Positions 1-52,049 of a stretch of DNA of 64,000 nt are shown here, piece after piece (the first letter of the stretch is position 1; each line of letters starts with the position of its first letter). The position numbers and the translations under genes are program-made. The stretch is from positions 1-64,000 of the IMG/VR virus record IMGVR_UViG_3300001589_007665, one strand, 5' to 3'. Below the pieces are notes generated by a model that was not told the DNA's origin, made no database searches, and saw nothing but the letters and a program-made list of their open reading frames with translations. The stretch is from a virus.

Positions 1-663
1 CCTCCTCCACCTCCGCCACCACCTCCGCCACCACCTCCTCCACCACCTCCGCCTCCACCGCCACCTCCACCGCCTCTTCCACCGCCACCGCCGCCACCTC
101 CTCCAAGTAATGATCCTCCTTGTAGCCAAGTATGTCAGGGTCAAGTTACTTTTATAGGACCAGGATCAGGTTTAACTGGACAACAGTGTGAAGATGGCGA
201 ACTTTGCTGTGATGGAAGCGGAGGAATTCTGGTTTGTGTAGACAATAATGGAGTTTCTGGTCCTCATTGTTGTTGTGCTCCAGATACTGCGACAAATCCA
301 AATCCTGGTGTGCCTTGTCCTATTGGAGCTTGTTGTCATTGTAGATATACTTATGGTAGTAGTATCTTAAATAACCCAGCTCTTGTTATTCAACAATGTG
401 AAGAGTGGATAGGAGACCCAAGATTCTGGGATCCTGCTCGAAATTGTGGACAATGTGAAGCTCACGAGGTTTTCCCGGGAGGCTATCGATGGAGAATAGC
501 TGTTCTCGATACTCCAGATAATGGTAATACTTGGAGAAAATATTGTGATATGCTCCCAGAAGGACAATGCTCTGAAGGGGATAATATGACTCAGTTTGAA
601 TGGTTCGGGCCACCACTAACATGTAACACACCAGGTTTGCCATGCACCGACTTTGTAACGTAA
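1..663 (+). CDS. 5'-truncated polyproline- and Cys-rich protein (probable virion/fibre protein)
   Basis: Frame 1 is open from base 1: a 35-codon Pro run with one Leu (1-105), then a Cys-rich region (CSQVC, LCCDG, HCCCAP, IGACCHC) in frame with the listed 310..663 ORF; TAA at 661-663. Confidence 0.75.
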   Translation, partial: PPPPPPPPPPPPPPPPPPPPPPPPPLPPPPPPPPPSNDPPCSQVCQGQVTFIGPGSGLTGQQCEDGELCCDGSGGILVCVDNNGVSGPHCCCAPDTATNPNPGVPCPIGACCHCRYTYGSSILNNPALVIQQCEEWIGDPRFWDPARNCGQCEAHEVFPGGYRWRIAVLDTPDNGNTWRKYCDMLPEGQCSEGDNMTQFEWFGPPLTCNTPGLPCTDFVT

Positions 664-708
664 TGCCAGGTTTTGAGTGTGATTGTTAACTAGAAAATCA
701 AGACAATT

Positions 709-727
709 AGTGTATATAAAACTATAA
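709..727 (+). promoter_or_regulatory. Candidate phage late-promoter motif RGTGTAWA (copy 1)
   Basis: AGTGTATATAAAACTATAA; GTGTA begins 47 nt before the ATG at 757; the same motif is in the other three long + strand intergenic gaps. Confidence 0.6.
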
Positions 728-756
728 CTTCTAAAAATATCTAAAGAACCCTTAAT

Positions 757-3700
757 ATGCCAAGAAGAATAACAGAAAACGGACAATCTTATCTATTATA
801 TGACGACTGTGAAGAGTATATTTATATTGGAAATGAGCCAGCTTGGAGAAACGGAGTTTTTTCAGACGTCAAGTTAGACAAATGTTGTGAAGGGCAAATT
901 TTAGATAGTGTTCCTGTAACAGCAACTCCAACACCTACAGTCACACCAACAGTTACTCCTAGTGTGACTTCTACAGCTACTCCTACGGTAACACCAACTG
1001 TTACTGCGACACCAACTATAACACCAACAGTTACTCCGACGATATCTGTTACTCCTAGTGTTACTCCAACAATTTCTGTAACTCCTTCAATAACCCCAAC
1101 AATTAGTTTAACTCCATCTGTAACTGCTACCGTGACTGTTACTCCTACTCTTACTATTTCTAATACTCCGACACTCACTCCTACTGTTAGCAATACTCCT
1201 ACTAATACTCCCACAATTAGTCTAACTCCCACTTTGTCTGCAACACCAACATTAACACCAACTCCTACAGTAACTCCTGTTACATTATCAGATGATAGCG
1301 GTATAGAGAAAATAGTATTAGCAGACGGTGCTGAAGAATATGAGATTATTAGTATAGATGTTGGAAATAGCACATCTATGATAGCAGGAGATGAGCATAT
1401 ACTTGCTGTTGTTGCACCTATTAATGATTATTCTTTTAATAACACCATCGACGCATCATATAATAAAGTATTAAAGTCCGATAATTATTTAACTGATTAT
1501 ACTATAGAAAATAAACTTATGACAGAAGCAAATGCTGCTATTTGGAATAATAGTGAGTATCCTTCTAGTAAAATTTCTAGTGTTCAGTATAATAATGATT
1601 TAAATAGATGGTTTATAGGAACAAATAGTCAAGCAGGTACTTCTATAGTATTTTTATATAGTATAGATTCGGCTTCAAATTATTTTATTCCACAAGGAGA
1701 TGTTATCGGTGGAGCAGGATCTATATGTGGTCCAACCAAAGTATATAGTGTAGATAATAAAACATTTTTATTCAATGATAGTAAAATTTATAGTTATACT
1801 ACATCAGACAAAACAAAAACAGGAAATGAATTAAGCTATCTATATTCCGAAGAAATTTTTAATTGTGAAAATAGTAATAGAATACAGTGCGGTGTTGACA
1901 GAACAGCATTGGGCAGTAATGTTAGTGTAAATTACAGACTGCCTTTAGTAAATAGTTCTAACAATCAATTATTTATACATCATGTGCCAGGAACAGGCAA
2001 TAATACAGTAGCAATAGACGGGATTGATTACGATTGTCCTGGTGTGATTGGTAATTATAGAGGATATAGTTTACATAGTTATGAATTTAATTTTACTATT
2101 AGCAGAATACAAATAAGTACAGAAAGTAATCAATTCTCTATTGATATTAAGTTTAATAAAGATATTAATTTTGATTATACTAATTTAGCACTATTGTATG
2201 GAAATAATAACATAACCATCGATCCTGCAAAAATTATATTAAATAAAATTTCAAACAAAAATTACTCAATAATTATTAACGACACGGATCTTATTGACGA
2301 TATCAATACACTACCTTATCATTTTAGACTTTCTAATTTATCCACTGGTAATACTTCGGATATTCCTAATGCTTTCATAGTACCTATATACGAAGTAGCA
2401 TCAGGTGAGGGTGGAAAAACTTATAACTATAATGCTGTTCAAGATGTTCGTTATACTAATTCAAATAGAGATAAAGTACCTGTTTTTTCTATTAATGCTT
2501 TAGATTTTATTACAGATAAAGACAAGACATTTGATTTTTATGTAGTGGCAGATACTACTTGTGATAGTGGATATAAATATACTATCATGGACAAGACTAA
2601 TGCTGGCAGTGGTTTAGATTATAATTTCTGTGTTTCTAGTTTAGAAGGAATAACTAGCACAGGAGAAGTCAAAGTTGTTCTTGCTAAAGGCGCAGAAATT
2701 TATATGTTGGTTCAACATACGTCTGATCCAGTAACAAAACCATATGATTTTTCTGAAGTTTACACATATAGTTTATTCAAGTCTAATAGTTTATTACCTA
2801 ATGGCTTTAGTTTAGTTGAAGACAATATTAAAGTTTTAAGAAAATTTGCTGGTCTTAATAGAGATATGACTAATGTTTGGAGTAATAGTTGTTTTATTAA
2901 TAGTTCTTATATGATAATAGGTGTTCCTAATAGTAGTACTGTTTTACGAATAAATTATAACGCCTCTCAAGTTATTGCTCCTCCTACTCCTACTCCGACT
3001 GTTACAACTACGGTTACAGCATCACCAGGACGTAGTCCAACACCAACTACTACTGGAACTCCAACTTCAACTCCTACTCCAACCGTAACCCTAACTACAG
3101 GAGCTAGTCCAACACCTACTCCTGCCAATACTTCAACGCCTAACCCAACCCCTACGCACACTGCAACACCAAGCCCAACACCGAGTCTAACACCATACGG
3201 AAGTTCAGGATTTACTGATTGGTATGCAGCTGGACCTCCTGCTAATCAACAAAACTGGATAGCAATTAGTAGTTCAGACACTGGACAAACTGTATTAGCA
3301 GCAGATGCTAATGATGCTAATTTATATATATCTACAGATTATGGTGCTACTTTTAACACTTCTAATGTTGGATCAAACACTCTTTGGAAAGATGTTGCCG
3401 TTTCTAATGACGGAGCTATAATGTATGCCTCTACTATCTTGGCTTACGGAGCAAGTCTTTATAAGTCTGTAGATGGTGGTGCTACGTGGAGTAATAATTT
3501 CTATAGTCCTATTGCAAGCACTTTAGGTTATACTAATAGTTTTATGGATGCATATTCGAGCAACATAGAAGATTTAGAAATTAGCGGAGATGGCAAACTT
3601 GTACTTGCCGATAATAAGAGTTTTAATGATTTAAGTAGAAGTAATAACTATGGAGGAGAGCCTGGTTCCGCTCATTCATCACCCGGTGAATTGCATGGTA

Positions 3701-4344
3701 TGGCCGTATCAAGAAATGGCAACTTGTATTATTACCTAACTAGATACCCAACAAGTGGGGGTAATGAAATAGTTAATATATATAGAGTTGCAGCTACTAG
3801 CCATAGTCCTAGCATAGTACTTAGTAGTGTCATTAGAGAATCAGGCGTTCCTGTTAAACATGGACTTGCAACCAATAATGACGGATCTTGTATTGTAACT
3901 AATATTGGTAGTGAAGTTTATGTGTCTAGAGATTCTGGAACATCATGGACCATGATCTTAGATAAAACATGGGATTATAATCAGTCTGATTGGCAGTGCG
4001 ACAGCTGTATCTTGGATTATTTCAAAATGTCTGATGATGGTTTAACTATAGCAGCTATTAGCGAAGGTGGTAGTGTCAATCCACAAATCTTAGAATACAA
4101 TAGTTCAGAAGACTCTTGGACACTCAAAGATACAGATTTAAAGACTGATGAAATTTCTACTTTCTCATTAGCAGAAGCCTCGAACAAAATTGCCATGACA
4201 TTTTCTGGAGATGCAAAGCGTTTGGCCGTAATAACCAATGATCCGACAACAGGACAAGGCTATATTTGGAGATCACAAAGCACAACTAACCTATATACAT
4301 TACAATTATTATCGCAATCTGATAATTTTAATGACATACCATAG
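757..4344 (+). CDS. Large Thr/Pro-rich virion-type protein with C-terminal Asp-box (BNR) beta-propeller
   Basis: 1195 aa; two TPT(V/I) tracts; Asp-box motifs STDYGATF, SVDGGATW, SRDSGTSW; no evident signal peptide. Confidence 0.75.
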   Translation: MPRRITENGQSYLLYDDCEEYIYIGNEPAWRNGVFSDVKLDKCCEGQILDSVPVTATPTPTVTPTVTPSVTSTATPTVTPTVTATPTITPTVTPTISVTPSVTPTISVTPSITPTISLTPSVTATVTVTPTLTISNTPTLTPTVSNTPTNTPTISLTPTLSATPTLTPTPTVTPVTLSDDSGIEKIVLADGAEEYEIISIDVGNSTSMIAGDEHILAVVAPINDYSFNNTIDASYNKVLKSDNYLTDYTIENKLMTEANAAIWNNSEYPSSKISSVQYNNDLNRWFIGTNSQAGTSIVFLYSIDSASNYFIPQGDVIGGAGSICGPTKVYSVDNKTFLFNDSKIYSYTTSDKTKTGNELSYLYSEEIFNCENSNRIQCGVDRTALGSNVSVNYRLPLVNSSNNQLFIHHVPGTGNNTVAIDGIDYDCPGVIGNYRGYSLHSYEFNFTISRIQISTESNQFSIDIKFNKDINFDYTNLALLYGNNNITIDPAKIILNKISNKNYSIIINDTDLIDDINTLPYHFRLSNLSTGNTSDIPNAFIVPIYEVASGEGGKTYNYNAVQDVRYTNSNRDKVPVFSINALDFITDKDKTFDFYVVADTTCDSGYKYTIMDKTNAGSGLDYNFCVSSLEGITSTGEVKVVLAKGAEIYMLVQHTSDPVTKPYDFSEVYTYSLFKSNSLLPNGFSLVEDNIKVLRKFAGLNRDMTNVWSNSCFINSSYMIIGVPNSSTVLRINYNASQVIAPPTPTPTVTTTVTASPGRSPTPTTTGTPTSTPTPTVTLTTGASPTPTPANTSTPNPTPTHTATPSPTPSLTPYGSSGFTDWYAAGPPANQQNWIAISSSDTGQTVLAADANDANLYISTDYGATFNTSNVGSNTLWKDVAVSNDGAIMYASTILAYGASLYKSVDGGATWSNNFYSPIASTLGYTNSFMDAYSSNIEDLEISGDGKLVLADNKSFNDLSRSNNYGGEPGSAHSSPGELHGMAVSRNGNLYYYLTRYPTSGGNEIVNIYRVAATSHSPSIVLSSVIRESGVPVKHGLATNNDGSCIVTNIGSEVYVSRDSGTSWTMILDKTWDYNQSDWQCDSCILDYFKMSDDGLTIAAISEGGSVNPQILEYNSSEDSWTLKDTDLKTDEISTFSLAEASNKIAMTFSGDAKRLAVITNDPTTGQGYIWRSQSTTNLYTLQLLSQSDNFNDIP
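913..1281 (+). repeat. Thr/Pro mucin-like coding repeat ([15 protein letters not shown])
   Basis: Degenerate ACN-CCN-rich repeat within the 757..4344 ORF; boundaries approximate. Confidence 0.9.
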
Positions 4345-4359
4345 TAAAATTGCTTTTAA

Positions 4360-4377
4360 AGTGTATATATAACTAAC
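4360..4377 (+). promoter_or_regulatory. Candidate late-promoter motif (copy 2)
   Basis: AGTGTATATATAACTAA; GTGTA at 4361, 53 nt before the ATG at 4414. Confidence 0.6.
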
Positions 4378-4413: not shown

Positions 4414-7400
4414 ATGAATTATAATAAGCCTGATTTAATATGGTTCTCCAAGTTTAATACTGCATCACCACTTACTCAAACTAATAAAAAAAGATTTATT
4501 GTTCGATTGTCTGAAAAAGCAGTCAACAATATGGACAATATTAATGATGTTCAAAAAATTATTGGTCCAGACTATAGGGTGTTGTGCGGTTTGGGTCATC
4601 CAGGAATGGTTGTCGTAGAGACTAATGTAGCTAATACATTTAATACATTATCTAATAATTCTAATATTGAATATGTAGAAGAAGATCAAACTATTCAATT
4701 AGACGATCCTGTTGTAAGACCACAAGATATAAAAAAAAATAATTTTAATGCTCTCTCTAGCGACCCTAATGATCCAGACTTTGATAAATTATATGGCTTG
4801 AATCCAAATGAAGGCAATTATCATATTAACTGTAAAGATGTTTGGATTACCAATAAGGGAAGTCATAGTATTGTTGTTGGAGTGGTCGATACTGGCATAG
4901 ATTATAATCATCAAGATTTAAGAGTAAATATGTGGACCAATACTGCTGAAACAAGCAACGGTATTGATAGTGACAATAATGGTTATGTAGATGATATACA
5001 TGGAATAAATGCTATAACAAATTCTGGCGATCCTATGGATGATCAAAGTCATGGAACGCATTGTGCTGGAACTATTGGTGCTGTTGGAAATAATAGCACA
5101 GGCGTCGTCGGAGTTAACTGGAATATACAATTAATGGCATTGAAGTTTTTACGTGCTGATGGTGGTGGTAATTCATCTGATGCTATCAAATGTGTTGCTT
5201 ATGCAGAATTAATGAAAAGCAGAGGAGTAAATATAAAAGCTACTAGTAACAGTTGGGGAGGAGGAGTTTTTTCTCAAGGTATGTTTGATGTAATTTCATC
5301 TGCTTGGACCAATGAAGATATGCTTTTTATTGCAGCAGCTGGTAATGACACTGCAAACACAGATATTGGAACAGTTTATCCTCAAGGATATAATATTCCT
5401 GGTATTATTTCTGTGGGATCAAGCACTCAGCAAGGTACTGTATCAGGCTTCAGTAACTATGGAGCAACAAGTGTTGATGTGGCCGCACCAGGATCGGCTA
5501 TTTATTCTACGATTCCAGTAGTAACTAATTACGGTTACAAAAGCGGTACAAGCATGGCCTGTCCTCATGTTGCTGGTGCTGTGGCTTTATTGTATAGTAT
5601 ACATCCTAACGCTACTGGTACACAAATTAAAAATGCTCTTATAAATACTTGTCAAAAAGTTACTGCTTGGTCTGGCAAATGTGTTAGTGAAGGCATTATT
5701 GATGTTAAAGCAGCGTCTGCTAGTTTAGCGGGCTCTCTTGTTACTCCTACGCCTACAGAAACTATTAGGGTCACTCAAACAGCTACTCCCAGGATCACGC
5801 CTCCTCCAACCAATACTCCTCAAGTCACCGCTACTATAACACCAACACAAACCCCAAGTTATTTTCCTAGAAAAGAAGTAGGAGGATTAGGTCCATATGG
5901 CTCTGACTATATCATTAAATTTAAATTACCTGGATTTGAAAACTATATAGGCGAAAAACTTTCTGTTAAAATCGGTGGAGAAAAATGTTGCACCATTGAC
6001 GGTATTATAAATTACTCTTTTCCAGCATTTGTTGATCCGATAGTTCCCGCAACACCAACGCCGACATCTACTCCTAGTTCAACTCCAACTCCTACTCCGA
6101 CACATACCATAACTCCTACAGCAACTGTTACTTCAACAAATACTGCCACTCCTACTGTTACTCCTACAATTAGTGTTACGCCAAGCGTTACTCCTACAGT
6201 TAGTGTTACCCCTAGCATTACTCCTACTTATACGCCAACTTCTACAGTAACTCCGACGATTAGTGTTACTCCAACTAATACTCCGTCGATTACTCCGACA
6301 ATATCTTTGACTCCTTCTATCACACCAACTATTAGTGTGACACCTTCCATTACTCCTACTATATCTTTAACTCCAAGTGTTACTCCTACCTTGTCTCTTA
6401 CTGTTAGTCCTACGCCAACAGTTACTCCTACTATTACTCTTACTGCAAGCAACACTCCTACTCCAACACCAACACCAAGTATTACTCCGACTCATACCCC
6501 AACACCAACGGTAACACCAAGTGTCACTCCGACTACTAGTGCAACACCGACACTAACTCCTACATTAAGTTTAACAGCTCCATTTGAAGCTGATGTGTCT
6601 TATAGACAGGGTCATGATTATATTAATAATCATGGCTATGATGCTGCTTTCAATTCAGACAAAACATTATTATTTACTTGTGATAGAATTACAGGTGTTA
6701 ACATGTATGATATATCTGATAAATATCATCCTGTACATACATTTACTTATGATTTAAGATATTATGTAGAGAGTGTAAACTATAGTGATTCTTATAATTT
6801 CCTGGCTGTTGCTAATTCAGGATACGGCACACATATTTTTGGAGTAGAAAACAATATAGCACATCCAAAACCAAAAGTTTTACAGCTTAAATCTACTGCT
6901 TCTAGCAAACCAGATGGATATGCTCGCAACAGAATATATCATAGACATTCTATCTTAGGTACAGGTAGTGACGCTAGATATATCTATGTTGCGGATCAAG
7001 AGTATGGACTATTAATATATAGAATAAATCCTACAGATCTTACTGCTGCTCCATTACTAAGTGCTTCATTAAGATATATTGATCCTGTAGACGCATATTC
7101 TCGTTCTCTGTTGTGGAGATGCTACATTTCTCCTAGCGATCCTAATTTGTTATATGTAGGTACTCAAAGAGGTGTACTATTATTAGTAGATATTACTGAC
7201 AGATCAAGTCCTGTATTAAAATCTTCTTTGATTACTTTTGCAAATACTAGGTGGCCAAATGGCTACGGGCAGATATACGATATTGTAGAAGATAGTATTG
7301 ATAGTGATATTGTTTATGTTGCAAATAGTGCTTACGCAATTCTGGCGGTAGACAAAAAGAACACTAGTGCTCCAACAATTATTGGCAGTTATGTTAAATC

Positions 7401-7431
7401 CGGTATTACTTCGATTTCTATTAAGGAATAA
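4414..7431 (+). CDS. S8 subtilisin-like serine protease (prodomain plus intact triad) fused to a Thr/Pro stalk and LVIVD-like propeller repeats
   Basis: VGVVDTGID (Asp, 4888), SHGTHCAGTIGA (His, 5050), AAAGND (oxyanion Asn), SGTSMACPHVAGAVALL (Ser, 5551); TP tract ~6043-6582; YIYVADQEYGLLIY and LLLVDITDRSSPVL repeats. Confidence 0.92.
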   Translation: MNYNKPDLIWFSKFNTASPLTQTNKKRFIVRLSEKAVNNMDNINDVQKIIGPDYRVLCGLGHPGMVVVETNVANTFNTLSNNSNIEYVEEDQTIQLDDPVVRPQDIKKNNFNALSSDPNDPDFDKLYGLNPNEGNYHINCKDVWITNKGSHSIVVGVVDTGIDYNHQDLRVNMWTNTAETSNGIDSDNNGYVDDIHGINAITNSGDPMDDQSHGTHCAGTIGAVGNNSTGVVGVNWNIQLMALKFLRADGGGNSSDAIKCVAYAELMKSRGVNIKATSNSWGGGVFSQGMFDVISSAWTNEDMLFIAAAGNDTANTDIGTVYPQGYNIPGIISVGSSTQQGTVSGFSNYGATSVDVAAPGSAIYSTIPVVTNYGYKSGTSMACPHVAGAVALLYSIHPNATGTQIKNALINTCQKVTAWSGKCVSEGIIDVKAASASLAGSLVTPTPTETIRVTQTATPRITPPPTNTPQVTATITPTQTPSYFPRKEVGGLGPYGSDYIIKFKLPGFENYIGEKLSVKIGGEKCCTIDGIINYSFPAFVDPIVPATPTPTSTPSSTPTPTPTHTITPTATVTSTNTATPTVTPTISVTPSVTPTVSVTPSITPTYTPTSTVTPTISVTPTNTPSITPTISLTPSITPTISVTPSITPTISLTPSVTPTLSLTVSPTPTVTPTITLTASNTPTPTPTPSITPTHTPTPTVTPSVTPTTSATPTLTPTLSLTAPFEADVSYRQGHDYINNHGYDAAFNSDKTLLFTCDRITGVNMYDISDKYHPVHTFTYDLRYYVESVNYSDSYNFLAVANSGYGTHIFGVENNIAHPKPKVLQLKSTASSKPDGYARNRIYHRHSILGTGSDARYIYVADQEYGLLIYRINPTDLTAAPLLSASLRYIDPVDAYSRSLLWRCYISPSDPNLLYVGTQRGVLLLVDITDRSSPVLKSSLITFANTRWPNGYGQIYDIVEDSIDSDIVYVANSAYAILAVDKKNTSAPTIIGSYVKSGITSISIKE
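6043..6582 (+). repeat. Thr/Pro coding repeat ([10 protein letters not shown]-type 10-aa units)
   Basis: Roughly 180 codons of T/P/S/V/I within the subtilase ORF; boundaries approximate. Confidence 0.9.
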
Positions 7432-7433
7432 AA

Positions 7434-20803: not shown

Positions 20804-20807
20804 AGAT

Positions 20808-40675: not shown

Positions 40676-41722
40676 ATGCCCAAAATTTCAGAATTAGACA
40701 TTATTAAACGGTTAACCGAAGATGATTTTTTTCTGGTTGTAGACAAAGAGACTTCTACAACAAGACAGATTAAACTTTCTGATATTTTAGATATTGTTCA
40801 GCATGTTTTTAAATTAGAGATTAGAAGAGATCCTCCAGGACCAATAGAAAGACCTCCTTTAGCAGTTGTACGTACTCCTGGAACTTTAATTTCTAGCCCA
40901 GATTTATCCTCACAAATATTCAACACCCAAACCTCTGTCGCTGGTAAGATTGGAAAATCTGGTAGCCTGTCTTTTACAAGACACACAATCTCAAGATTAA
41001 ATACAGAACTTTTAGCTTTAGGATTCAAGCTAGTATCAACCTCAGGAGCTAATACTGGAGGTAAAACTAATTATACTCAACCAAACAATAATACTCATCA
41101 TTCATGGAATAGAGCTAAAAATACTTGGGAAACTATTCCCGCTACTCAAAGCAGCTGGATAGGCTCTATGACCATAATTCCAAATACAGATATCTCTAAT
41201 TTAATTGACTCATACTCTGTCACATCTACAGAAAGTATAATTACATTAGCATATGATTCATTTGCTTTGCCTAATAGATATATTGTTACTGCTGTCAACG
41301 CTAATGAACAATACGGATCTGCAGAATCTAATGTGGTAATATTTGATACATATCATGAGGTTACTGGAGCTCAAACAGTTAGTATGTGTAAACCTTCTGG
41401 TTACAATAAAATAAGAGTACAAATTAAATCTGAAAGAGGAAATAGTTTTGAGTACACCTTAAAAGATAGTGGTACAGCATGTTCGGTATCTCCTACTCCT
41501 ATACCTGTGACACCAACTGTTACTCCGACATCATTTGCTACTCCTACTCCAACTTCTACTCCTAGAGTAACACCTAATGCTCCTACAGCGACACCAACTG
41601 TTACTCCAACTAGTTCTGCAACACCAACCGTTACGCCAACTAGTTCTGTGACACCAACTGTTACTCTAACAAGCTCAGTAACTCCAACCAAAACACCGAC
41701 ACCAACAGTCACCCCATCCTAA
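40676..41722 (+). CDS. Fibre-type protein with KISEL N-terminal module and C-terminal Thr/Pro tail
   Basis: MPKISEL...DDFFLVVD...TRQIKLSDI resembles N-termini of phage fibre/structural proteins; YDSFALPNRYIV domain resembles the 18209 ORF C-terminus; 30-bp TPTVTPTSSA repeats at ~41590-41680. Confidence 0.65.
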   Translation: MPKISELDIIKRLTEDDFFLVVDKETSTTRQIKLSDILDIVQHVFKLEIRRDPPGPIERPPLAVVRTPGTLISSPDLSSQIFNTQTSVAGKIGKSGSLSFTRHTISRLNTELLALGFKLVSTSGANTGGKTNYTQPNNNTHHSWNRAKNTWETIPATQSSWIGSMTIIPNTDISNLIDSYSVTSTESIITLAYDSFALPNRYIVTAVNANEQYGSAESNVVIFDTYHEVTGAQTVSMCKPSGYNKIRVQIKSERGNSFEYTLKDSGTACSVSPTPIPVTPTVTPTSFATPTPTSTPRVTPNAPTATPTVTPTSSATPTVTPTSSVTPTVTLTSSVTPTKTPTPTVTPS

Positions 41723-43891: not shown

Positions 43892-44218
43892 TTATTTTTT
43901 ATTATTGGATGTATATTTATACCATCCATTATTCTTGGTATAATTACCATCGGCATCTTTTCTCTTGGGGAAAAGAGTTCCGCCCTTTTTATGTTGACCA
44001 TATGACAGAACTGCTCCGCAGTCCATGCATCGTAATTCATAGTATTCATTATCATCCACAACTCTTACTACAAACTTAATATTTTCAGATCCACATATTC
44101 CACATTTAACTTCTCCAAAAATTTCTTGGATACTAGCTATTTCTTTAAAAAGCTCTTTTTGGCCAGCACCATCTAATTCAAACTCAAGTTTGTCTCCTAC
44201 CTTATATTTTGCTTTCAT
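43892..44218 (-). CDS. Small Zn-ribbon protein, unknown function
   Basis: 108 aa; CGIC...CMDC. Confidence 0.7.
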   Translation of the reverse strand: MKAKYKVGDKLEFELDGAGQKELFKEIASIQEIFGEVKCGICGSENIKFVVRVVDDNEYYELRCMDCGAVLSYGQHKKGGTLFPKRKDADGNYTKNNGWYKYTSNNKK

Positions 44219-44222
44219 AATA

Positions 44223-44900
44223 CTATTTCCACTCCGAATTATATTCTAGGATAGTTGAAGGTATATTATCTACGTCTTGTTGATAGGCAGATAATTTTCT
44301 AATCATCTTAACAGCATCTCCATGGTCCATAGCATATATATTCTTAGAATCTATACTTTCAGAATCAAGCAATGATGTTATATTTATATTAAGTCTTTTT
44401 CCTAATACGTCAATGAAATTAATCTGATTATTTGTTATTTTACTAACAGTATTCCCATCTAGATCCTCTACCTCTTTAGCTATTTCTTCCGCAGCAACAA
44501 CTTTTCTAAGCTTTAAGCCCCTTCTCAAGGCCCTACCTTCAGCCCTAGTTTCTGCTACAGCAATAGGATGATTTCTATATATCTTGTCGCAATTGCCCCA
44601 ATAAACGTCAGCGGCCCCATTAACGGTTATTGTTTTAAATTGTTGATCAATCTTCGGATCATTTAAAATATAGACCAGGGTGTGTATCACTGTGGCTCTG
44701 TTGCCATTCTCTGGGTTTGGAAACTGAGGTATGCTAGAAGAACACTCTACGAGAGTACAATCCAAAGCGGCCTCAAATATTCTTCTCAAGCCATCTGTAG
44801 TAGGATTGTCCGCAATTTTTTCATCATCAGACAATAGTCCTAGAACGTAATCATTCCATTCAATATCATTAGGAGAAGGCTTATTAGGTTTTCTTGGCAT
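44223..44900 (-). CDS. Putative ssDNA-annealing protein (Rad52/Sak/ERF-like)
   Basis: GAADV...VAETRAEGRALRRGL motif, C-terminal ITNNQINFI helical module, replication context. Confidence 0.5.
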   Translation of the reverse strand: MPRKPNKPSPNDIEWNDYVLGLLSDDEKIADNPTTDGLRRIFEAALDCTLVECSSSIPQFPNPENGNRATVIHTLVYILNDPKIDQQFKTITVNGAADVYWGNCDKIYRNHPIAVAETRAEGRALRRGLKLRKVVAAEEIAKEVEDLDGNTVSKITNNQINFIDVLGKRLNINITSLLDSESIDSKNIYAMDHGDAVKMIRKLSAYQQDVDNIPSTILEYNSEWK

Positions 44901-44902
44901 TT

Positions 44903-45712
44903 TTAATTATCCTTAATGTGAAAAATTCTATTATCTGCATCTGGAAATTTATCAGTTATTTGTTTAACAATATCTAGTAATTGATCAAATATTAGGTAGG
45001 ATCTAGAAACGGAAAAGTCCATTTTTTGTTGTATGCGTACTAGCACCATTCCTTTGCCTAATATTAAACCTTGTTTTTTATTATCATATGTTTTAGTCTT
45101 CTTTAATGTATCCGATCCCCATACAGGACTAAAATGTGAAGGCCCATCAACTTCTATCGCTACATTTATCTTAGGAAGATACAGGTCTATTTGCAACTTT
45201 GTATTTACAAGACTTTGCTCTTGATGAAATATAACATCTATATTGTTCTTAATGAGTTGCTCTAATAAAAATTTTTCTAGTTTTGACCCAACTTTACTAG
45301 TAGTTCTTATCGCTTCATTAGCAGATTGTTTCATTAATTGCTTTTGCTCATCAGACATGTCATTCCATAGTTTTCTATGAGTTTCTTTTCTTTGTTCAAG
45401 TTCGTTACTATCTAAACTATCCCAAGACTGCAAAACTCCCATGCCTATTTTCCTTTTCGTTTCTTCGGTGCGATGAGTACCTTTGGTTGGATGTTTATGT
45501 TTACCTGTTTTTAAAGCATTTTTTTGTGCTTCGCTTTTATTTCTAATTGGTATATTAAACTTTTTAGCATCTCTCCTTAACTTATTGGCATATGTATTAT
45601 ATGTGGACGCTATATCAGCAAAACTGTTTTTGTTTTTAACATATAAGTCTTTTAGCAGTTCTATTTTTTTAGCGTCTGTTAAATTATTATAGGATGTTTT
45701 TGATGCTTTCAT
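44903..45712 (-). CDS. HTH + NUMOD3 + DUF559/Vsr-like endonuclease (homing-endonuclease-like architecture)
   Basis: LYVKNKNSFADIA...FNIPIR; HPTKGTHRTEETKRKIG; QIDLYLP...AIEVDGPSHF...YD. Confidence 0.75.
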   Translation of the reverse strand: MKASKTSYNNLTDAKKIELLKDLYVKNKNSFADIASTYNTYANKLRRDAKKFNIPIRNKSEAQKNALKTGKHKHPTKGTHRTEETKRKIGMGVLQSWDSLDSNELEQRKETHRKLWNDMSDEQKQLMKQSANEAIRTTSKVGSKLEKFLLEQLIKNNIDVIFHQEQSLVNTKLQIDLYLPKINVAIEVDGPSHFSPVWGSDTLKKTKTYDNKKQGLILGKGMVLVRIQQKMDFSVSRSYLIFDQLLDIVKQITDKFPDADNRIFHIKDN

Positions 45713-46145
45713 GGTTTAGGTTCCTAGAGATACATATTGGTTTTTTCCAGCATAAGTCATAAACTTCTGATATTTTATCATTAGAAGCTATAAATTCCAA
45801 ATTCTTTGTTTCAAACATTTCTTTTATGTTTTGATATCTAGAATATGATTGATTAGACCATATAGAATCTGAAACAAAAAAGAATATTTTATTAATATTA
45901 GGAAAATTCTTTGCCATCATTAATGACAAACTATCAAATACAACAAGATTGCCATAGAAAAACTTTGCCTGATTAATGTGTAATATAGGTATGTTTTTGG
46001 TGTGTAATTTTTCGTTATAGCTATTAAAAATACATATCTGATTATACGGATTGCTATCTATTATAGATTTTATAGACTCAAATATAGATTCATGCATTTG
46101 GGCATTATTCGTTTTTAGTATTATAAATCCTAAATCTTGTTTCAT
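45687..46145 (-). CDS. Glycosyltransferase-associated hypothetical protein (GT-B N-terminal-like fragment)
   Basis: 152 aa; KIFFFVSD..W and EFIASN segments; position in the GT cluster. Confidence 0.45.
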   Translation of the reverse strand: MKQDLGFIILKTNNAQMHESIFESIKSIIDSNPYNQICIFNSYNEKLHTKNIPILHINQAKFFYGNLVVFDSLSLMMAKNFPNINKIFFFVSDSIWSNQSYSRYQNIKEMFETKNLEFIASNDKISEVYDLCWKKPICISRNLNHESIKNIL

Positions 46146-46801
46146 TTAATGATGCTCCCAATATAGTCTGAGTATGTTTGATATTTTTTAGAGTCTAAAT
46201 TTATTTCGTTTAATTTTGTGTCTAATACCTTGCATCCACACAAAGTTGCCTCTAAAGCATAGAATTGATTTTGACAGATGTAAGTGTGGGAATCATTTAA
46301 GACATTATTTTTATCATTCTCTGTTAAGAAACCTAAATTCTGTACATGATTTATTTTTTGATTATTAAACATTTTAATTTTATATTTGCTTTTATTAGGA
46401 TATAATAACCGTGTCATATCATCGTTTATATCTGTTTCATTATCTAAAAAGTAAGAAGCATTAATGCCTCTGCTTTTATTTTGTTGATTAAAAAATCTAT
46501 ATGGATTGTATAATAGAGGGATATCTTTGTCATATAGATGAACGATATTTTTTATCTTATCGACATCTGTTGCTTGTTCTGAAATATGATAAACTATTAT
46601 TTTACTATCAGTAATATTTGTACAGAAATGAATCTCTTCATGCGTGAGTTTTTCTGCAACAAAAATATACAGATTTGGTTTTTTAGTTTGATGTATTTTA
46701 TATACATTGTTGAAAAAGTCAATATACGCAATAGTATGGCCAGATACAGAGTCTAGATTATTAATAAACTTATTATCATCTTTTTGTACAATTATTTGCA
46801 T
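46142..46801 (-). CDS. Degenerate GT-B/GT4-like protein
   Basis: 219 aa; YNPYRFFN, NLGFLTE...VLN...LEATLCGCKVL retains only the second Glu of the E-x7-E motif. Confidence 0.5.
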   Translation of the reverse strand: MQIIVQKDDNKFINNLDSVSGHTIAYIDFFNNVYKIHQTKKPNLYIFVAEKLTHEEIHFCTNITDSKIIVYHISEQATDVDKIKNIVHLYDKDIPLLYNPYRFFNQQNKSRGINASYFLDNETDINDDMTRLLYPNKSKYKIKMFNNQKINHVQNLGFLTENDKNNVLNDSHTYICQNQFYALEATLCGCKVLDTKLNEINLDSKKYQTYSDYIGSIIK

Positions 46802-47475
46802 TGAACAAACCTTTTGGCTTTCTTTATGTCATTAGTACTATTTACTTTCATAATATTCCTATATGATATTGTATGATGCTCTATATCAGAACTTTCTTGT
46901 AAAAAATTTATAATTTCAAATAGAAAATAATTATTAATTTGTTTCTGTTCATTCATTGTTAATATCTTTTGCAGATCAGACTTAACCAAAAAAGCACATT
47001 CGCACCATTTTTGTTGTAATTCGTAGAATAAATATTTAGAATCCTTGTTATGACAACCTATACTAAAATTATCTTTATCTCTGTCTAAAAGAAAAATTTT
47101 TGATTTATCTTTTTTTCTAATGCTGCTAAAACACCTATTTTTAAATAAAACTCCATTTTTTATAATAAACAGATTATTGAGACTATCTATATTGTTTTTA
47201 ATATAATTGATAATGTGCTTAGATTCGTTACAATTTTCGTATTCAGATTCATAAATACTATGTACATTTTTATACTTATCTGCAACCTTTTTAACTTTGT
47301 TATGTTGGAATCCAGTAGATAAATATATTTTATTTTGTCTATTCATTATTTTTATTGATTTAATCTGATAGTCTAAGATTGTGTTTTTTGAATTAATAGG
47401 CAAAAGAGCTTTTGAACCTATTGATTTCATACCTTTTGTAATTTCTGGCATTATTATTAGATAGTCATTACTCAT
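46792..47475 (-). CDS. Sugar/choline-phosphate nucleotidyltransferase-like protein with degenerate signature
   Basis: LIIMPEITKGMKSIGSKALLPI...TILDYQI...STGF; C-terminal MKVNSTNDIKKA; the GxGxR motif is missing. Confidence 0.65.
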   Translation of the reverse strand: MSNDYLIIMPEITKGMKSIGSKALLPINSKNTILDYQIKSIKIMNRQNKIYLSTGFQHNKVKKVADKYKNVHSIYESEYENCNESKHIINYIKNNIDSLNNLFIIKNGVLFKNRCFSSIRKKDKSKIFLLDRDKDNFSIGCHNKDSKYLFYELQQKWCECAFLVKSDLQKILTMNEQKQINNYFLFEIINFLQESSDIEHHTISYRNIMKVNSTNDIKKAKRFVQCK

Positions 47476-48220
47476 AGTACGGATGTATTACTTCTGTGTC
47501 TTTTTTTAAGGTGTCCATATAGTATTTATTATTTTTTTCGGAATATGATTTAATTTCTTTAAACGTCACTATAGGCAGACATAAACCATTTAGATCTCCA
47601 GTAGATTTTCTTAATCCAGCAACTCCTGGTGGTCTTTTGACGGTAGCTAAAAAATTTACATAATTAATTTGTTCTTGTAGTTCTGAAAAATTTTCACGAC
47701 TATAGCACAAGTATCCTGTCTTATTTGCTTCTAAATTAGTACCTGTAATTGTATTAAAAATATTATTTTCATCCATATTGCCTGTACTATTAACAAAATT
47801 ATGTGATTTCCAAGAAATCTTATTTCTTTTTTTCATGCCATCAATAAATTTTAGAATATCTTCTTTATTTAGGACACAAGCTATAGATATTTCATATGGC
47901 TTGATATATAATTTATCTATATAGTCGTCATATATTTTAAATATATCGTCTACTGTTTTATCTACTAAATTTAATATTAGGTAGTAACTAATAGCATTTT
48001 TACGACGAACATAATCTATAAAATCTTTTGATAAATCATCTTTATGTTTATTGAATTGTTTTTTAGAAAAAGCGTAAGAACATTTATAGTTTTTAATAAT
48101 GGTGTTACTGTCTGTTTCTTCAACCGTATATTCTTTTGAAATCAAAGAAGGTATATTAAACAAGCAATCACTGTCTTGAAAAAAATAACAAAGAGAACAT
48201 ACAGTATTAACTTCGCTCAT
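47468..48220 (-). CDS. Hypothetical protein in the glycosyltransferase cluster
   Basis: 250 aa; N-terminal CSLC..F...C; coupled to both neighbours. Confidence 0.6.
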   Translation of the reverse strand: MSEVNTVCSLCYFFQDSDCLFNIPSLISKEYTVEETDSNTIIKNYKCSYAFSKKQFNKHKDDLSKDFIDYVRRKNAISYYLILNLVDKTVDDIFKIYDDYIDKLYIKPYEISIACVLNKEDILKFIDGMKKRNKISWKSHNFVNSTGNMDENNIFNTITGTNLEANKTGYLCYSRENFSELQEQINYVNFLATVKRPPGVAGLRKSTGDLNGLCLPIVTFKEIKSYSEKNNKYYMDTLKKDTEVIHPYYE

Positions 48221-48630
48221 AAAGAAATCCTTTGAATTTTATACAAACTATGTATATCATCACTAGATACGTCTACAATTTTTACATCTGGCTTATTATG
48301 AAACATTTCAAAAATTTCTGGCTGGTTAATAATACAAGTAACTCCATGCATGGACTTACAAACATCATCATCAGATATTTTTTGAAACTTGTAAGAATCA
48401 ATTATATGATTAAAGTTTAACAGTTTTAATGTCAGAGTCCCAGACTGTTTAAGTTTGTTTACAGCAATATTAATAATATTTAAACTATCTGTTTTTGGAA
48501 ACATATTTAATATAGCAAGATACATATTGTTGTTTGAAAAATTGGGTATAGAGTCTAACGAATTGATGTCTATATTTTCAGCAGACTCCAACTGATGGGT
48601 GTCTTTATAACAAATGTTAGTTAGGCGCAT
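48217..48630 (-). CDS. Truncated/degenerate class I SAM-methyltransferase-like protein
   Basis: 137 aa; IPNFS...ILNMFP...NKLKQSGTLTL resembles the 'LKPGG' half of the fold; no GxG motif I. Confidence 0.4.
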   Translation of the reverse strand: MRLTNICYKDTHQLESAENIDINSLDSIPNFSNNNMYLAILNMFPKTDSLNIINIAVNKLKQSGTLTLKLLNFNHIIDSYKFQKISDDDVCKSMHGVTCIINQPEIFEMFHNKPDVKIVDVSSDDIHSLYKIQRISL

Positions 48631-49477
48631 TATTGGCTCCCTGTAAAATTTTTGTCAAATTATCATTAAAAGTTTCAATATTATATATCTCAGATAAGTC
48701 TGATATGTCTGTTGGGTCTTTACTCATTGCATAATTTACGCATTCAAAAGCATTCTGAAAACTACCAAATTGTAATATATGGTTATTTATAGGAGAGTCC
48801 GTCAAATCTAAACTTGTAATACCAACACCTTTACATAGTGTACAAAGTATTAAATTGATTTTTGATTCTAGGTCTATAACTACTTTATATTTACCTATTT
48901 GATTTATCGTGTTTTCTATATCTCCACTTGTACTATTGATCATATCAGAATCTTTATCTGTTTTTTTAATTTCTTCAAATAGCTGATTTAATACATCATT
49001 ATTGCTGTGGTTAATAATTAATATATTTTTTTCTTTTTTAACATTTGTTGCATAGGGGATACCATATTCTATATTGTAGCTTTTTTTAAGTACACTGTCA
49101 GAATTTCTATTAAAATTAATAATAGTAATATAATCATGTTTTAAATTATTATTTAATATATGTAAATCTTCTCTTTTTATCTTAGTAAGATCTTCATGAT
49201 TAAAAATGATAATATGTATATTTGAATTTTTTAATTCTAGCAGGGCAGAAGATTCTATCATAAGAGTGTTAAATAGCATATAGTCATAATTAAAATCGTA
49301 TACCTTATTTTGTTCAGCAAGTGTTTGTTTATAGAGAACTACGATTTCAGGATGTTCAAAAAGTATAGCGTCAAAAATTGTATTGTTGGAGTTAGATAAA
49401 CAGATATTTTTAAAACTATTTACCTTAGTTCTTAATCTGTGAAAAACATTAGATATGGGCCATTCATTGTTTAACAT
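48617..49477 (-). CDS. Degenerate glycosyltransferase-like protein
   Basis: 286 aa; IEYGIP, YKVVIDL...LCKGVGITS and YNIETFNDNL GT-B-like segments without catalytic Glu residues. Confidence 0.45.
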   Translation of the reverse strand: MLNNEWPISNVFHRLRTKVNSFKNICLSNSNNTIFDAILFEHPEIVVLYKQTLAEQNKVYDFNYDYMLFNTLMIESSALLELKNSNIHIIIFNHEDLTKIKREDLHILNNNLKHDYITIINFNRNSDSVLKKSYNIEYGIPYATNVKKEKNILIINHSNNDVLNQLFEEIKKTDKDSDMINSTSGDIENTINQIGKYKVVIDLESKINLILCTLCKGVGITSLDLTDSPINNHILQFGSFQNAFECVNYAMSKDPTDISDLSEIYNIETFNDNLTKILQGANNAPN

Positions 49478-50397
49478 AATAAGTCTTTAATATTTATCTC
49501 GTTGTTTTTTGATTGTTTTGCGTCTTTTGTTTGAAATGATGCTTGCAAAGATTTATTGATAATAGTATAAGTTGTATTATTGTGGTTATTATTAATATCT
49601 AAGTCTAGGTCACTATAATCAATACAACGATTGCCGTATGATCTAGACAGAGAATATTGTAATACGGGGAAATAGTCTTGGTTTAAAGCCAAAAAGACAT
49701 CTCCGGCATTATGAAGAGAATGTAATACTTCTTCGTCTTTATCGAACATAAAAAATACCCTATCTGTATAGATATTGACATTATAGTACTTCTTAGCATT
49801 CCGATAAAAGTCAATAATTTCTGTTGCATTTGTTCTGTCATCAAATCGACAATAAATAACCAAAGAATTGTTTTGTGGTATTTGTAGAAAATTAGAAATT
49901 ATTAGCTTTAATACTTGCATATCCTGATCTTCTGCTATTGCATAAAATTTTGTAGTATCTTCGTATACAGGTAAAGACAAAGTATCTGTTTTTGTTTCTT
50001 GTTCAAAAGGTTTCAAGTGTATCAATCTATCTTTTTTAATACCGATACCAACAAAAGCATTGTAGTCAGAATTATTTGTTGTTAAAATTTTATCTACAAG
50101 TTCTAATTTGTTTTTAAATTCTAATGGTATGCTTTGCGTCGGAGACATTATTGGGACGAAGTAAGTTTTACTATTAATGTCTGGATGTAAATCAATTATG
50201 GTACAGTGTTGAATATTTATATCGGGATATTTTGTACAGCTTAGAACATTTTCATATGAAATATTTTGAGAGCCTCCATATATTGGATAGACATAATTAT
50301 TATTGCTCGTAACTTGGGATATCTCTTTGAAGAAAGAGACAGAAGCTTTACCGAGAAAAGAGTGTTGTAGTAATGGTCCTATATAAAGTATATTCAT
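49471..50397 (-). CDS. Degenerate GT4-like glycosyltransferase
   Basis: MNILYIGP...LGKAS; KFYAIAE; SLHNAGDVFLAL...YGN, with the E-x7-E residues absent. Confidence 0.6.
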   Translation of the reverse strand: MNILYIGPLLQHSFLGKASVSFFKEISQVTSNNNYVYPIYGGSQNISYENVLSCTKYPDINIQHCTIIDLHPDINSKTYFVPIMSPTQSIPLEFKNKLELVDKILTTNNSDYNAFVGIGIKKDRLIHLKPFEQETKTDTLSLPVYEDTTKFYAIAEDQDMQVLKLIISNFLQIPQNNSLVIYCRFDDRTNATEIIDFYRNAKKYYNVNIYTDRVFFMFDKDEEVLHSLHNAGDVFLALNQDYFPVLQYSLSRSYGNRCIDYSDLDLDINNNHNNTTYTIINKSLQASFQTKDAKQSKNNEINIKDLLC

Positions 50398-52049
50398 TGT
50401 TGTGTTTTTAATCTAGCATATTGAATAAAATCGTCGTCAAACTGTATATTATTGTCTATAGCAAATTTTAATTCATTATTGTTTTTTACATAAGTGTTGA
50501 TTTGGTCTATAATAGTATTAATGTCTATGGCTTTAGTCTGTAAACCATTCATCTGAAAGCCGTTGTCTATATCATTTAAAAAGTGTAACATTCTGCTAGA
50601 AGAAATTTTTTCTATATCTCCCAACCCTTTATGACACATTAAAATCATTTGATCTATATTTTCGGATATATCAATATCTCCAACACGGTCTACTTTTTGT
50701 AGTTCTGGCACTTTAGACCAATCAGACTTATAATTCTGTTGAGACAAACTGTCTAAATATGTTTCCCATTTTTTAGCTATAATATCCCAGTCATAAAATT
50801 TTTCTGTTAATTCTCTTATCTGTTTTCTTTTTTTATCTACCATAGACTGAGGCAGATTTAATGTCTTATTGATCGTACTAATTAAATCATCATTATCTGG
50901 ATAGACTCGTACGGCTCTTGTTTCTAATTCTTTAAATGGAGACTGAACTTTTATAGGATATGCTTTAAGCTTTTTTATAACATCACACATAGCACTATAG
51001 TTTACTGTCGCTACCGGAACACCGCATGCTGCTGCTTCTACTTGTGGCATGCCGAAACCTTCGCAGATAGCATATTGCACATAAAGATTAAATGTGTTAT
51101 AAATAGTAGATAGTTGTTCTGTACTTATTCCAGAACTAACACTAGGAAATACTTTCGATCTTTTTAGACATTTTGTACACAATATATTAGGACCAGAAAA
51201 TACCTGAGAAGAAACATGATCACAATTTTTGCAAACATAAGTAAATAGTACTTTATTGGCAAGCCGATTTTCTTTTAATACTTCTGGTAAATCCCATCCT
51301 GCATCGGGCCAACTAGTATGTAAATAAAGATATAAATTTTTACCTATAGAGGCATTACTTTTTTCGCATTGATCTAAAAGTTTTCTAAATGCACCACATA
51401 ATCTAGGTATAAGTTTTCTTTTTTGGTTTCTCATTACAGAACCAATAATAATACTGTCTTTATCTATGCCTAAAGACTGTTTGCATTCTTGCATATTTTT
51501 AATTCTAAAAGTCTTTAAGTCTACTCCAGGGGATGCTGTGTCTATATAATTAACATTATCACTAGACTGTTCTTTTAAAACATTGGCTCCCCAATCAGAA
51601 TAAGTAAAAACTGCGTCAGCAGATAGATATGTATCCATCCACATCTGCTGTTGTGGGGCAGAGTCTATCGTGGGCATAAGTATCCAATGAAAATATGGCC
51701 TACAGGGAGAAAGCTCTTGATAAGCACTCATCCAATAGTCTCTTATGTCTATAACAACATCTGGCTTAAAATCTACAACAACTTTGTCAAATCTCCATCG
51801 ACCAAAAGCATTGTCTGGTCGAGACGAATACTCTTTATGTCTTGAGTCTTGATCATTAACAGAATTAGCATATAGTTTCCATGGGATATCTTTATCTCTA
51901 GGGTCATTAACAGTTGCATAACTAGCAAATTCTGCTATTTCATATTTTTGTGTAGCATATAACCTATTTAAAATTTCTCTGGTATAGGTGCCATATCCTG
52001 AATTTAGGAAACTGGCTTCTGAACACATTAGTATTTTAAGTTTGCTCAT
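50394..52049 (-). CDS. GT4-family glycosyltransferase with inserted Zn-finger
   Basis: SGYGTY, PGVDLKTF, RNQKRK, YNTFNLYV...EGFGMPQVEAAACGVP (intact E-x7-E); CKNC...CTKC insertion. Confidence 0.9.
   Translation of the reverse strand: MSKLKILMCSEASFLNSGYGTYTREILNRLYATQKYEIAEFASYATVNDPRDKDIPWKLYANSVNDQDSRHKEYSSRPDNAFGRWRFDKVVVDFKPDVVIDIRDYWMSAYQELSPCRPYFHWILMPTIDSAPQQQMWMDTYLSADAVFTYSDWGANVLKEQSSDNVNYIDTASPGVDLKTFRIKNMQECKQSLGIDKDSIIIGSVMRNQKRKLIPRLCGAFRKLLDQCEKSNASIGKNLYLYLHTSWPDAGWDLPEVLKENRLANKVLFTYVCKNCDHVSSQVFSGPNILCTKCLKRSKVFPSVSSGISTEQLSTIYNTFNLYVQYAICEGFGMPQVEAAACGVPVATVNYSAMCDVIKKLKAYPIKVQSPFKELETRAVRVYPDNDDLISTINKTLNLPQSMVDKKRKQIRELTEKFYDWDIIAKKWETYLDSLSQQNYKSDWSKVPELQKVDRVGDIDISENIDQMILMCHKGLGDIEKISSSRMLHFLNDIDNGFQMNGLQTKAIDINTIIDQINTYVKNNNELKFAIDNNIQFDDDFIQYARLKTQQ

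Follow-up and report, generated by a model that had tools for sequence, protein, structure and literature searches.

The stretch analysed here (the window) comprises the first 64 kb of the 78,909-bp IMG/VR virus record IMGVR_UViG_3300001589_007665 and has a G+C content of 33.7%. CheckV estimates the record, called G000 where genomes are compared, to be about 55% complete, and neither a terminal repeat nor a tRNA gene was found in it. Thirteen large open reading frames (ORFs) fill the + strand from 1 to 43890, and several of them encode proteins in which globular domains alternate with long stalks rich in Thr, Pro and Ser or with runs of proline. From 43892 onwards the minus strand carries three conserved small genes, then a cluster of eight genes (45687-52049, the sugar operon below) and then a bacterial-type replication module. 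We consider it probable that, taken together, the + strand block is a tail-tip block with stalked appendages and the operon is a separate glycan-building unit. The + strand ORFs are the following, with lengths in amino acids (aa) and Thr/Pro tracts abbreviated as TP.

1-663, + strand: ORF truncated at its 5' end, with a polyproline tract (nt 1-132) in which 36 of 44 aa are Pro, 25 of them in one run
757-4344, + strand: 1195 aa, TP tracts at nt 904-1125, 1141-1290 and 2977-3210
4414-7431, + strand: 1005 aa, prodomain-like N-terminus, S8 subtilase, TP tracts (nt 5797-5859 and 6028-6585, the latter 186 aa), C-terminal LVIVD repeat domain
7434-15743, + strand: 2769 aa, N-terminal dead subtilase paralogue, polyproline tracts (nt 8772-8858, 10233-10328 and 12204-12395, and a 10-Pro run near nt 14883), Gly_rich_2, RCC1 propeller
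15800-18196, + strand: 798 aa, without tracts, the C-terminal 75 aa matching tail-fibre PHROGs (phrog_693, 1e-9)
18209-20803, + strand: 864 aa, TP tracts at nt 19445-19612 and 20225-20371
20727-24701, + strand: 1324 aa, polyproline/SPPPP tract (nt 20820-21002), TP tracts (nt 21687-21773, 22275-22469 and 23427-23870, the last 148 aa), C-terminal FGE-sulfatase domain
24727-26706, + strand: 659-aa lineage-core protein, N-terminal domain (aa 23-155) with a predicted Dit / tail-hub fold
26717-32923, + strand: 2068-aa lineage-core protein following the Dit-like gene, without tract or family match
32940-40253, + strand: 2437-aa lineage-core protein, SPPPP/polyproline tract at nt 37839-38057
40253-40627, + strand: 124-aa conserved small protein (phrog_13558, 7e-11)
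40676-41722, + strand: 348 aa, the last 82 aa (nt 41474-41719) forming a TP tail and no domain lying beyond it
41743-43890, + strand: 715 aa, FGE-sulfatase domain and C-terminal HELGHGLGF zincin-like motif

Tracts were called in all ORFs of the window by one fixed rule (20-aa windows with T+P+S of at least 70% and at least four Pro). The rule returned exactly eight + strand ORFs (1-663, 757-4344, 4414-7431, 7434-15743, 18209-20803, 20727-24701, 32940-40253 and 40676-41722) with 1,141 tract residues in total, and no minus-strand ORF. The dipeptides TP and PT together occur 27.4 times per 1000 aa in the + strand proteins and 2.8 times in the minus-strand proteins, and the longest proline runs are 25 residues in ORF 1-663, 11 and 10 in 7434-15743, and 10 in 20727-24701. 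A contig whose structural homologues are 81-86% identical has its tracts at matching positions and of near-equal lengths (141 against 148, 65 against 65, and 84 against 82 residues in the window), and the tracts are therefore conserved, translated coding features. Recent gene conversion among the TP tracts was ruled out, their nucleotide copies being just 60-70% alike. The runs of 10-25 consecutive prolines lie in late proteins (1-132, 12204-12395 and 20820-21002); no EF-P gene was present in the five genomes searched, which implies a strong dependence of these proteins on the EF-P of the host.

The heads carried by these stalks are diverse. The subtilase of 4414-7431 matches PF00082 at 6e-51 over profile positions 3-275, its LVIVD domain scores above the cut-off, and the DTG, HGTH and GTSMA motifs are all visible in the translation and in pairwise alignment; by these Asp, His and Ser catalytic motifs the protein is an intact peptidase S8. 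The N-terminus of the neighbouring 2769-aa protein is homologous to it (BLASTP, 7e-25) and has no Pfam S8 match. Its catalytic triad is gone, the Asp being replaced by Ser/Glu, the His motif lost and the Ser replaced by Trp, and on these substitutions it is a pseudo-protease paralogue of the S8 enzyme. The C-terminal domain of 757-4344 has a weak, sub-cut-off Pfam likeness to Sortilin/BNR propellers, and the FGE-sulfatase domain of 20727-24701 belongs to a C-type-lectin-like fold. In the latter protein, aa ~98-166 reach 18.5 bits against the VWA profile (cut-off 23.8), covering its first 71 positions only, and the region has no match among PDB sequences. The putative metalloprotease of 41743-43890 is assigned from its HExxH motif alone, and its C-terminus likewise has no PDB sequence match. 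No family match was obtained for the 176-aa domain behind the tract of 1-663 or for the domains of 18209-20803.

A preliminary description of this DNA had counted at least eight + strand proteins with such tracts, none with an evident signal peptide, and had seen in them propeller, vWA, lectin-fold and protease heads of a virion coat. The count is borne out exactly by the fixed rule, and no + strand protein has an N-terminal hydrophobic segment or signal peptide. The protease head stands, as do the LVIVD and RCC1 propellers and the two FGE-sulfatase (lectin-fold) domains; the vWA head is a candidate whose match stays below threshold. Placement of the stalked proteins in the virion module is also supported, for its tail-tip part, through the Dit-like fold and the strand shared with terminase, portal and capsid genes in a complete relative, as set out below.

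The three lineage-core genes make up the conserved part of the block. When the model of the 659-aa protein was compared with known structures, its domain at aa 23-155 matched the Dit protein of phage SPP1 (2x8k) with a VIA Z of 8.9, a value near the chance ceiling, and a root-mean-square deviation of 2.9 Å over 110 residues. The baseplate Dit proteins of phages 80alpha (Z 8.7), TP901-1 (Z 8.6) and p2 were matched too, and nearly all of the top 30 structure rows are phage tail-hub, tail-tube or baseplate proteins. The model has an overall pLDDT (predicted local distance difference test) of 48.8, the N-terminal domain being better modelled. In the Atlas, Dit_like and DNA_circ_N annotations for this protein provide independent weak leads. 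The 2068-aa protein would be a tail-tip protein by its position only, which is that of Tal; a profile of its first 500 aa returned no match among PDB sequences. The 2437-aa protein that follows holds the only strongly hydrophobic segment pair of the + strand block (aa 1425-1461, nt 37212-37322), which suggests a membrane-inserting step at infection.

Whole genomes or contigs of 12 relatives were compared with the record; the complete ones include G001 (175 kb) and G003 (223 kb), of which latter G006 is a partial sister. In G001 the homologues of the three core genes end a single-strand block that begins with a terminase large subunit (5e-22), a portal protein (1e-10) and, weakly, a major head protein (8e-4). 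Apart from one near-identical contig, the three genes are 22-60% identical in four relatives. The 659-aa and 2068-aa core proteins are free of tracts, and the flanking tract-bearing genes have few or no homologues in the relatives. This context, through which alone virion membership is assigned, supports the view that the stalked proteins are variable appendages of the tail-tip or baseplate end.

The + strand block would accordingly form the distal part of a virion module, coding for the tail tip or baseplate of a large, uncultured marine tailed phage, with the tip built from the Dit-like protein followed by the 2068-aa and 2437-aa proteins. The fast-changing flanking genes would supply modular appendages, in which globular heads (the active subtilase and its dead paralogue, the propellers, the FGE-sulfatase domains of lectin fold and the zincin-like motif) are spaced by Thr/Pro linkers or rigid polyproline rods. 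We infer that the most likely task of these heads is to reach the host surface, bind to it and digest it locally.

Such an arrangement recalls the tail tips of the siphophages SPP1 (gp19.1), p2, TP901-1 and 80alpha, in which very large tip proteins come after a Dit-fold protein and the tip is surrounded by variable multi-domain appendages of carbohydrate-binding or enzymatic type. It differs from them in that there is no sequence similarity and in that the tip proteins are far larger here (2068 and 2437 aa). To our knowledge, none of the SPP1, p2, TP901-1 or 80alpha baseplates has TP or polyproline stalks or a subtilase head. The stalks themselves resemble the Pro/Thr-box linkers of the Cellulomonas fimi enzymes CenA and Cex, where low-complexity spacers of the (T/S)P(T/S)x type join catalytic and binding domains. 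Linkers of this kind in secreted glycoside hydrolases are O-glycosylated and so shielded from proteolysis. The CenA/Cex-type hydrolases are secreted and glycosylated outside the cytoplasm, whereas the phage proteins lack a signal peptide and must assemble in the cytoplasm.

The sugar operon starts 1.8 kb after the + strand block and consists of eight overlapping, intact ORFs on the minus strand. GT denotes glycosyltransferase, and m04 to m10 are our names for seven of the genes.

45687-46145, minus strand: m04, 152 aa, conserved
46142-46801, minus strand: m05, 219 aa, with a short, weak GT-B C-terminal-like motif only
46792-47475, minus strand: m06, 227 aa, nucleotidyltransferase-like, deep-clade core
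47468-48220, minus strand: m07, 250 aa, N-terminal Cys cluster and a GT-A / NDP-sugar-transferase-like core at aa 75-197
48217-48630, minus strand: m08, 137 aa, deep-clade core
48617-49477, minus strand: m09, 286 aa, diverged GT-B (GT1)-like
49471-50397, minus strand: m10, 308 aa, GT-B (GT1)-like, deep-clade core
50394-52049, minus strand: GT4 glycosyltransferase, 551 aa, with E-x7-E and an inserted Cys4 ribbon, always following SSB/DnaE

The last of these matches Glycos_transf_1 (PF00534) at 4.9e-12, above the cut-off, and its E-x7-E motif (E330, E338) and Cys4 ribbon are invariant in eight orthologues; by profile and motif it is a family 4 glycosyltransferase of the GT-B type. Pfam and PHROGs gave no match for the other seven proteins, and the operon-protein profiles A1 to A4 gave none among PDB sequences. 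A PF20706 'GT4-conflict' match lies below the cut-off, and the one match of the GT4 alone among PDB sequences, to PC4, was rejected as spurious. Assignment of the remaining members therefore draws on a distant relative (GT4 45% identical), whose operon encodes two GT1 enzymes, GT2, NTP_transf_3, Glyco_trans_1_2, an epimerase and GT25. In profile-profile comparison m10 matched the first GT1 of that operon (98.9%), m06 its NTP_transf_3 protein (99%), m08 an unnamed operon neighbour (91%) and m09 the second GT1 (77%). In m06 a conserved ITKGMKS stands in place of GxGxR. For the core of m07 (aa 75-197, model pLDDT 57) fold comparison returned CHSY3-CHPF (Z 8.4), BcsA (8.3), EXTL2 (8.2) and GtrB (7.7), and Foldseek found no match to the model at E <= 0.001.

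None of the eight proteins has a transmembrane segment. Measured against a close relative, the ratio of non-synonymous to synonymous substitution (dN/dS) is 0.06-0.23 for all eight genes, with dS near saturation, and the genes are therefore working and under purifying selection. They evolve faster than their neighbours (aa identity 54-80% against 88-95%) and lie in a G+C trough of 25-27%. The preliminary description had proposed an eight-gene cluster of GT-, nucleotidyltransferase- and methyltransferase-like genes. The eight intact ORFs and a clear GT4 are there, and two GT-B-like, one GT-A-like and one nucleotidyltransferase-like member find weaker, profile- or fold-based support; the methyltransferase label given to 48217-48630 was not confirmed. 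A sizeable, soluble glycosylation capacity encoded by the phage is nonetheless evident in the GT4, the GT-like folds and a second sugar cassette past the window end (69820-74496), which holds a 4,6-dehydratase RmlB (3e-49), RmlC (3e-44) and a GT2+GT1 fusion. The unusual anatomy of the stalked block is real, and so is this capacity.

The same description had tentatively linked the two, with the cluster glycosylating the stalks. The phage's own soluble enzymes, namely the operon and perhaps also the RmlB/RmlC/GT2-GT1 cassette, would attach O-glycans to the Thr/Pro stalks before assembly, while these are still in the cytoplasm, and so produce a sugar-coated, protease-resistant fringe of tail-tip heads. 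Several properties of the operon agree with such a role: its products are all soluble and under selection, several GT folds occur beside a nucleotidyltransferase-like protein, the second cassette lies in the same genome, and its fast evolution and low G+C content are those of bacterial surface-glycan loci. On the other side, the operon is transcribed together with the replication genes rather than with those of the virion. Since Pro-rich linkers resist proteases intrinsically, the stalks need no glycans to shield them. A census of the record and the 12 relatives bears more directly on the question. Tracts are present in six of the 13 genomes or contigs and absent from seven, with the following numbers of tract residues.

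G000 (the record): 1141
G004: 1442
G002: 1655
G001: 376
G005: 316
G007: 47
G003 (complete, 223 kb): 0
G006: 0
G009:C7: 0, with one polyproline run in a short frame
G009:C9: 0
G010:C64: 0
G011: 0
G012:C20: 0

The core of the operon occurs in all 13 of these genomes or contigs. Its members, the GT4, the first GT-B enzyme, the 137-aa protein and the nucleotidyltransferase-like protein, are found clade-wide, except at two loci that are truncated or most distant. The operon is intact save for the accessory gene m07 in G003 and G006, and its core alone is kept in G009:C7, G009:C9, G010:C64 and G011, which are partial and distant; in none of these six was a TP or polyproline tract or a Ser/Thr-rich tag found, and G003 has no comparable low-complexity linker either. 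The expected co-occurrence of the GT cluster with genes rich in TP or polyproline thus fails, as relatives that include a complete genome keep the cluster without them, an outcome that the preliminary description had itself named as refuting the link. Because the core persists in relatives without Thr/Pro or polyproline tracts, the stalks as such are not what the operon primarily modifies; its acceptor is more likely a conserved component of the virion or the cell envelope. For the operon as a whole the link to the stalks is not supported, and stalk glycosylation by these enzymes is a minority hypothesis that we rate as rather unlikely. The operon would instead be a separate, soluble glycan-building unit under purifying selection, with its core (GT4, GT-B, the small protein and the nucleotidyltransferase-like protein) apparently welded to the DnaE/SSB genes across a deep phage clade.

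Several observations weigh against this combined picture of a tail-tip block and a separate operon. The two structure models carry low confidence (pLDDT 48.8 and 57), and the fold matches, at Z 8-9, fall in the range of chance arrangements, so that the case lies in the consistency of the hit lists. Binding and digestion of the host surface go a step beyond the domain assignments themselves. No cultured-phage relative was found for the structural genes or the GT4: in the GenBank phage collection the 2068-aa protein, the Dit-like protein and the GT4 all lack a match, and the DnaE is matched at ~33% only. The remaining points concern m07, the only operon member that comes and goes among the relatives. 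Its family occurs in six of the six tract-bearing genomes and is missing from the complete, tract-free G003, no member being found in G003 or G006 at E <= 0.1. In G001, moreover, m07 has moved out of the operon into the virion module, where a gene whose TP tract is 142 residues long lies 1.6 kb away. This distribution and position fit stalk glycosylation better than they fit a separate unit.

Clear or weak members of the m07 family also occur in tract-free partial contigs, however, and the tract-bearing genomes form one sub-clade; the association is one-directional and may reflect only one or two independent events. We therefore treat the presence of m07 in tract-bearing genomes as a weak lead. 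Stalk glycosylation is possible as an added function of the separate operon, for which the GT-A-like m07 would be the best candidate. A bolder version, in which a deep aquatic clade of uncultured DnaE phages practises cytoplasmic protein O-glycosylation and, in a marine/freshwater sub-clade whose tail-tip proteins acquired mucin-like Thr/Pro stalks, m07 starts the stalk glycans and the core GT-B enzymes extend them, strikes us as doubtful.

A precedent for virion glycosylation exists in the mycobacteriophages Che8, Corndog and Myrna (Freeman et al. 2023, as cited in PMC12619734 and PMC10877033), whose glycans are reported to have been measured at the C-termini of capsid and tail-tube subunits. 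The present phage resembles them in encoding its own glycosyltransferases and in having virion proteins as a possible acceptor. It differs in that its GTs are unrelated (no match in the phage database) and in that its operon persists without Ser/Thr-rich tags.

If the acceptor lies in the host instead, the operon may remodel an envelope glycan (lipopolysaccharide (LPS) core, teichoic acid or a capsule precursor) at the inner membrane face, for example to block superinfection or to keep progeny off debris, and the stalks would be plain spacers. Soluble enzymes are no obstacle, since WaaG and similar GT4 enzymes use lipid-linked acceptors although they lack transmembrane segments. The GT4 falls in the Atlas among large, almost purely viral GT4 clusters, one of them auto-named RfaG-like; the operon of the distant relative contains GT25 (an LPS family), GT2 and an epimerase; and the independence of the operon core from the tracts is in line with an envelope target. 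Against it, the operon showed no flippase, polymerase or lipid-carrier transferase, and the core is kept across G+C contents of 29-52% and inconsistent bins of metagenome-assembled genomes (MAGs), hence probably in hosts with differing envelopes. We rate this reading, like that of stalk glycosylation, as rather unlikely. It is the usual interpretation for GT-rich cyanophages (PMC12801897), of which the cyanomyovirus S-SCSM2R encodes 13 GTs (PMC12801897); moraphages have four core GT orthogroups (PMC12619734). Like these GT-rich aquatic phages, the present one is large and has several core GTs and nucleotide-sugar enzymes, but it belongs to another lineage, with a split DnaE in place of family B/A polymerases and a fixed SSB-GT4 synteny.

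That synteny raises a further question, namely whether the GT4 and its partners glycosylate the phage DNA, which would explain their fixed place beside SSB and DnaE. The order DnaE-exo-DnaE-SSB-GT4 recurs in every related locus examined (>20), down to ~35% identity and over G+C contents of 29-52%, and the genome also encodes a dNMP kinase and a dCMP deaminase. Modification of DNA by the GT4, which the preliminary description had named as an alternative, is nevertheless disfavoured. Neither a thymidylate-synthase-type hydroxymethylase (PF00303) nor a C5-methylase (PF00145) was found in G000-G004, three relatives being complete and the positive controls having worked; TET/JBP (PF12851) had no match in the record and relatives, but its control was silent. 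With no known route to a hydroxymethyl acceptor base in the record or its relatives, and with a multi-GT operon that exceeds the needs of known DNA glucosylation, we hold a DNA acceptor to be very unlikely.

The SPPPP and PTS-rich tracts also resemble, in composition only, the extended stalks of plant and algal extensins and animal mucins. SPPPP-like motifs in 20727-24701 and 32940-40253 might suggest an extensin-type chemistry, in which prolines are hydroxylated and then arabinosylated or galactosylated. Most of the polyproline runs have no Ser, though, and a search for a 2OG-Fe(II) prolyl hydroxylase (prolyl 4-hydroxylase, PF13640), which such a pathway would call for, found none in the 79-kb record (~55% complete), G001, G003 or G004, so that this chemistry is left without support; a single PF13640 match in G002 (26.4 bits) is sub-threshold. 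HPAT/SGT1-type enzymes (PF23452) had no match, but the control genomes were silent too, and a GT27-type initiating enzyme was not detected. We consider extensin-type modification exceedingly improbable.

Between the + strand block and the operon lies one further group of genes:

43892-45712, minus strand: three conserved genes encoding a 108-aa zinc-ribbon protein, a 225-aa protein and a 269-aa HNH-like protein

These genes are 53-95% identical in five compared relatives, recognisable at lower identity in distant contigs, and among the best conserved of the clade (in distant relatives identity still reaches 71%), so that the HNH-like gene does not represent a mobile homing endonuclease. The replication module beyond the operon encodes SSB, a DnaE in two parts that flank an exonuclease, and further a PD-(D/E)XK nuclease, a dNMP kinase, a primase and DnaB. 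The DnaE split (52561-56920) separates an N-terminal PHP/polymerase gene from a C-terminal fingers/HhH gene, and the gene between them encodes a DEDD exonuclease. Past the window end follow PhoH, ribonucleotide reductase and dCMP deaminase, then the second sugar cassette, and finally a lysis-like group of membrane proteins. A 350-aa protein (69820-70872) adjoining the RmlB/RmlC/GT2-GT1 genes, 5.8 kb past the window end, is one of 35 metagenomic proteins with an invariant L-E-x-D-C and H-I-N-G-G motif; it has no Pfam or PDB sequence match and may be a new GT-A-type transferase. Beside small membrane proteins, 75853-76779 encodes a 308-aa protein without a Pfam match, 74-87% identical in close relatives, that may be a lysis enzyme. 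In G001 a further cluster of ~20 kb (4000-24500) has ORFs whose N-termini, read by eye only, resemble an aminotransferase, an SIS isomerase, a GHMP kinase, a cytidylyltransferase, an epimerase and GT-like proteins of sugar pathways, and the glycan capacity of the clade appears larger than the core operon.

An AGGA resembling a Shine-Dalgarno sequence lies upstream of 20 of 30 genes. Copies of AGTGTATA/GGTGTAWA at 709, 4360, 15754 and 40627 stand ~45 nt upstream of four + strand genes, where they occupy four of the few intergenic gaps; none occurs in the sugar operon. As a motif in the whole window, RGTGTAWA is not enriched above chance (12 found, 14.6 expected). The GT4 and replication genes are shared with 19 viral and six MAG-binned contigs, and marine metagenomes from at least four further studies contain 20-47% of the words sampled from a 9-kb stretch; no RNA dataset was among the sequencing runs listed. 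The MAG bins (Alphaproteobacteria, SAR202, Verrucomicrobiales, Flavobacteriales and Hydrogenophaga) are inconsistent as a guide to the host and probably reflect mis-binning.

These results indicate that long Thr/Pro or polyproline rods can carry the heads of tail-tip proteins, among these heads an intact subtilase and its inactivated copy, and that a widespread clade of large uncultured aquatic phages keeps a glycan-building operon tied to its replication genes. If the stalks are glycosylated, a virus of bacteria would make a mucin-like glycoprotein coat with its own enzymes, and these would offer a tractable set of soluble peptide glycosyltransferases. Cytoplasmic O-glycosylation, if it does take place, would give a bacteriophage a sugar-coated fringe made up of protease, propeller and lectin heads.

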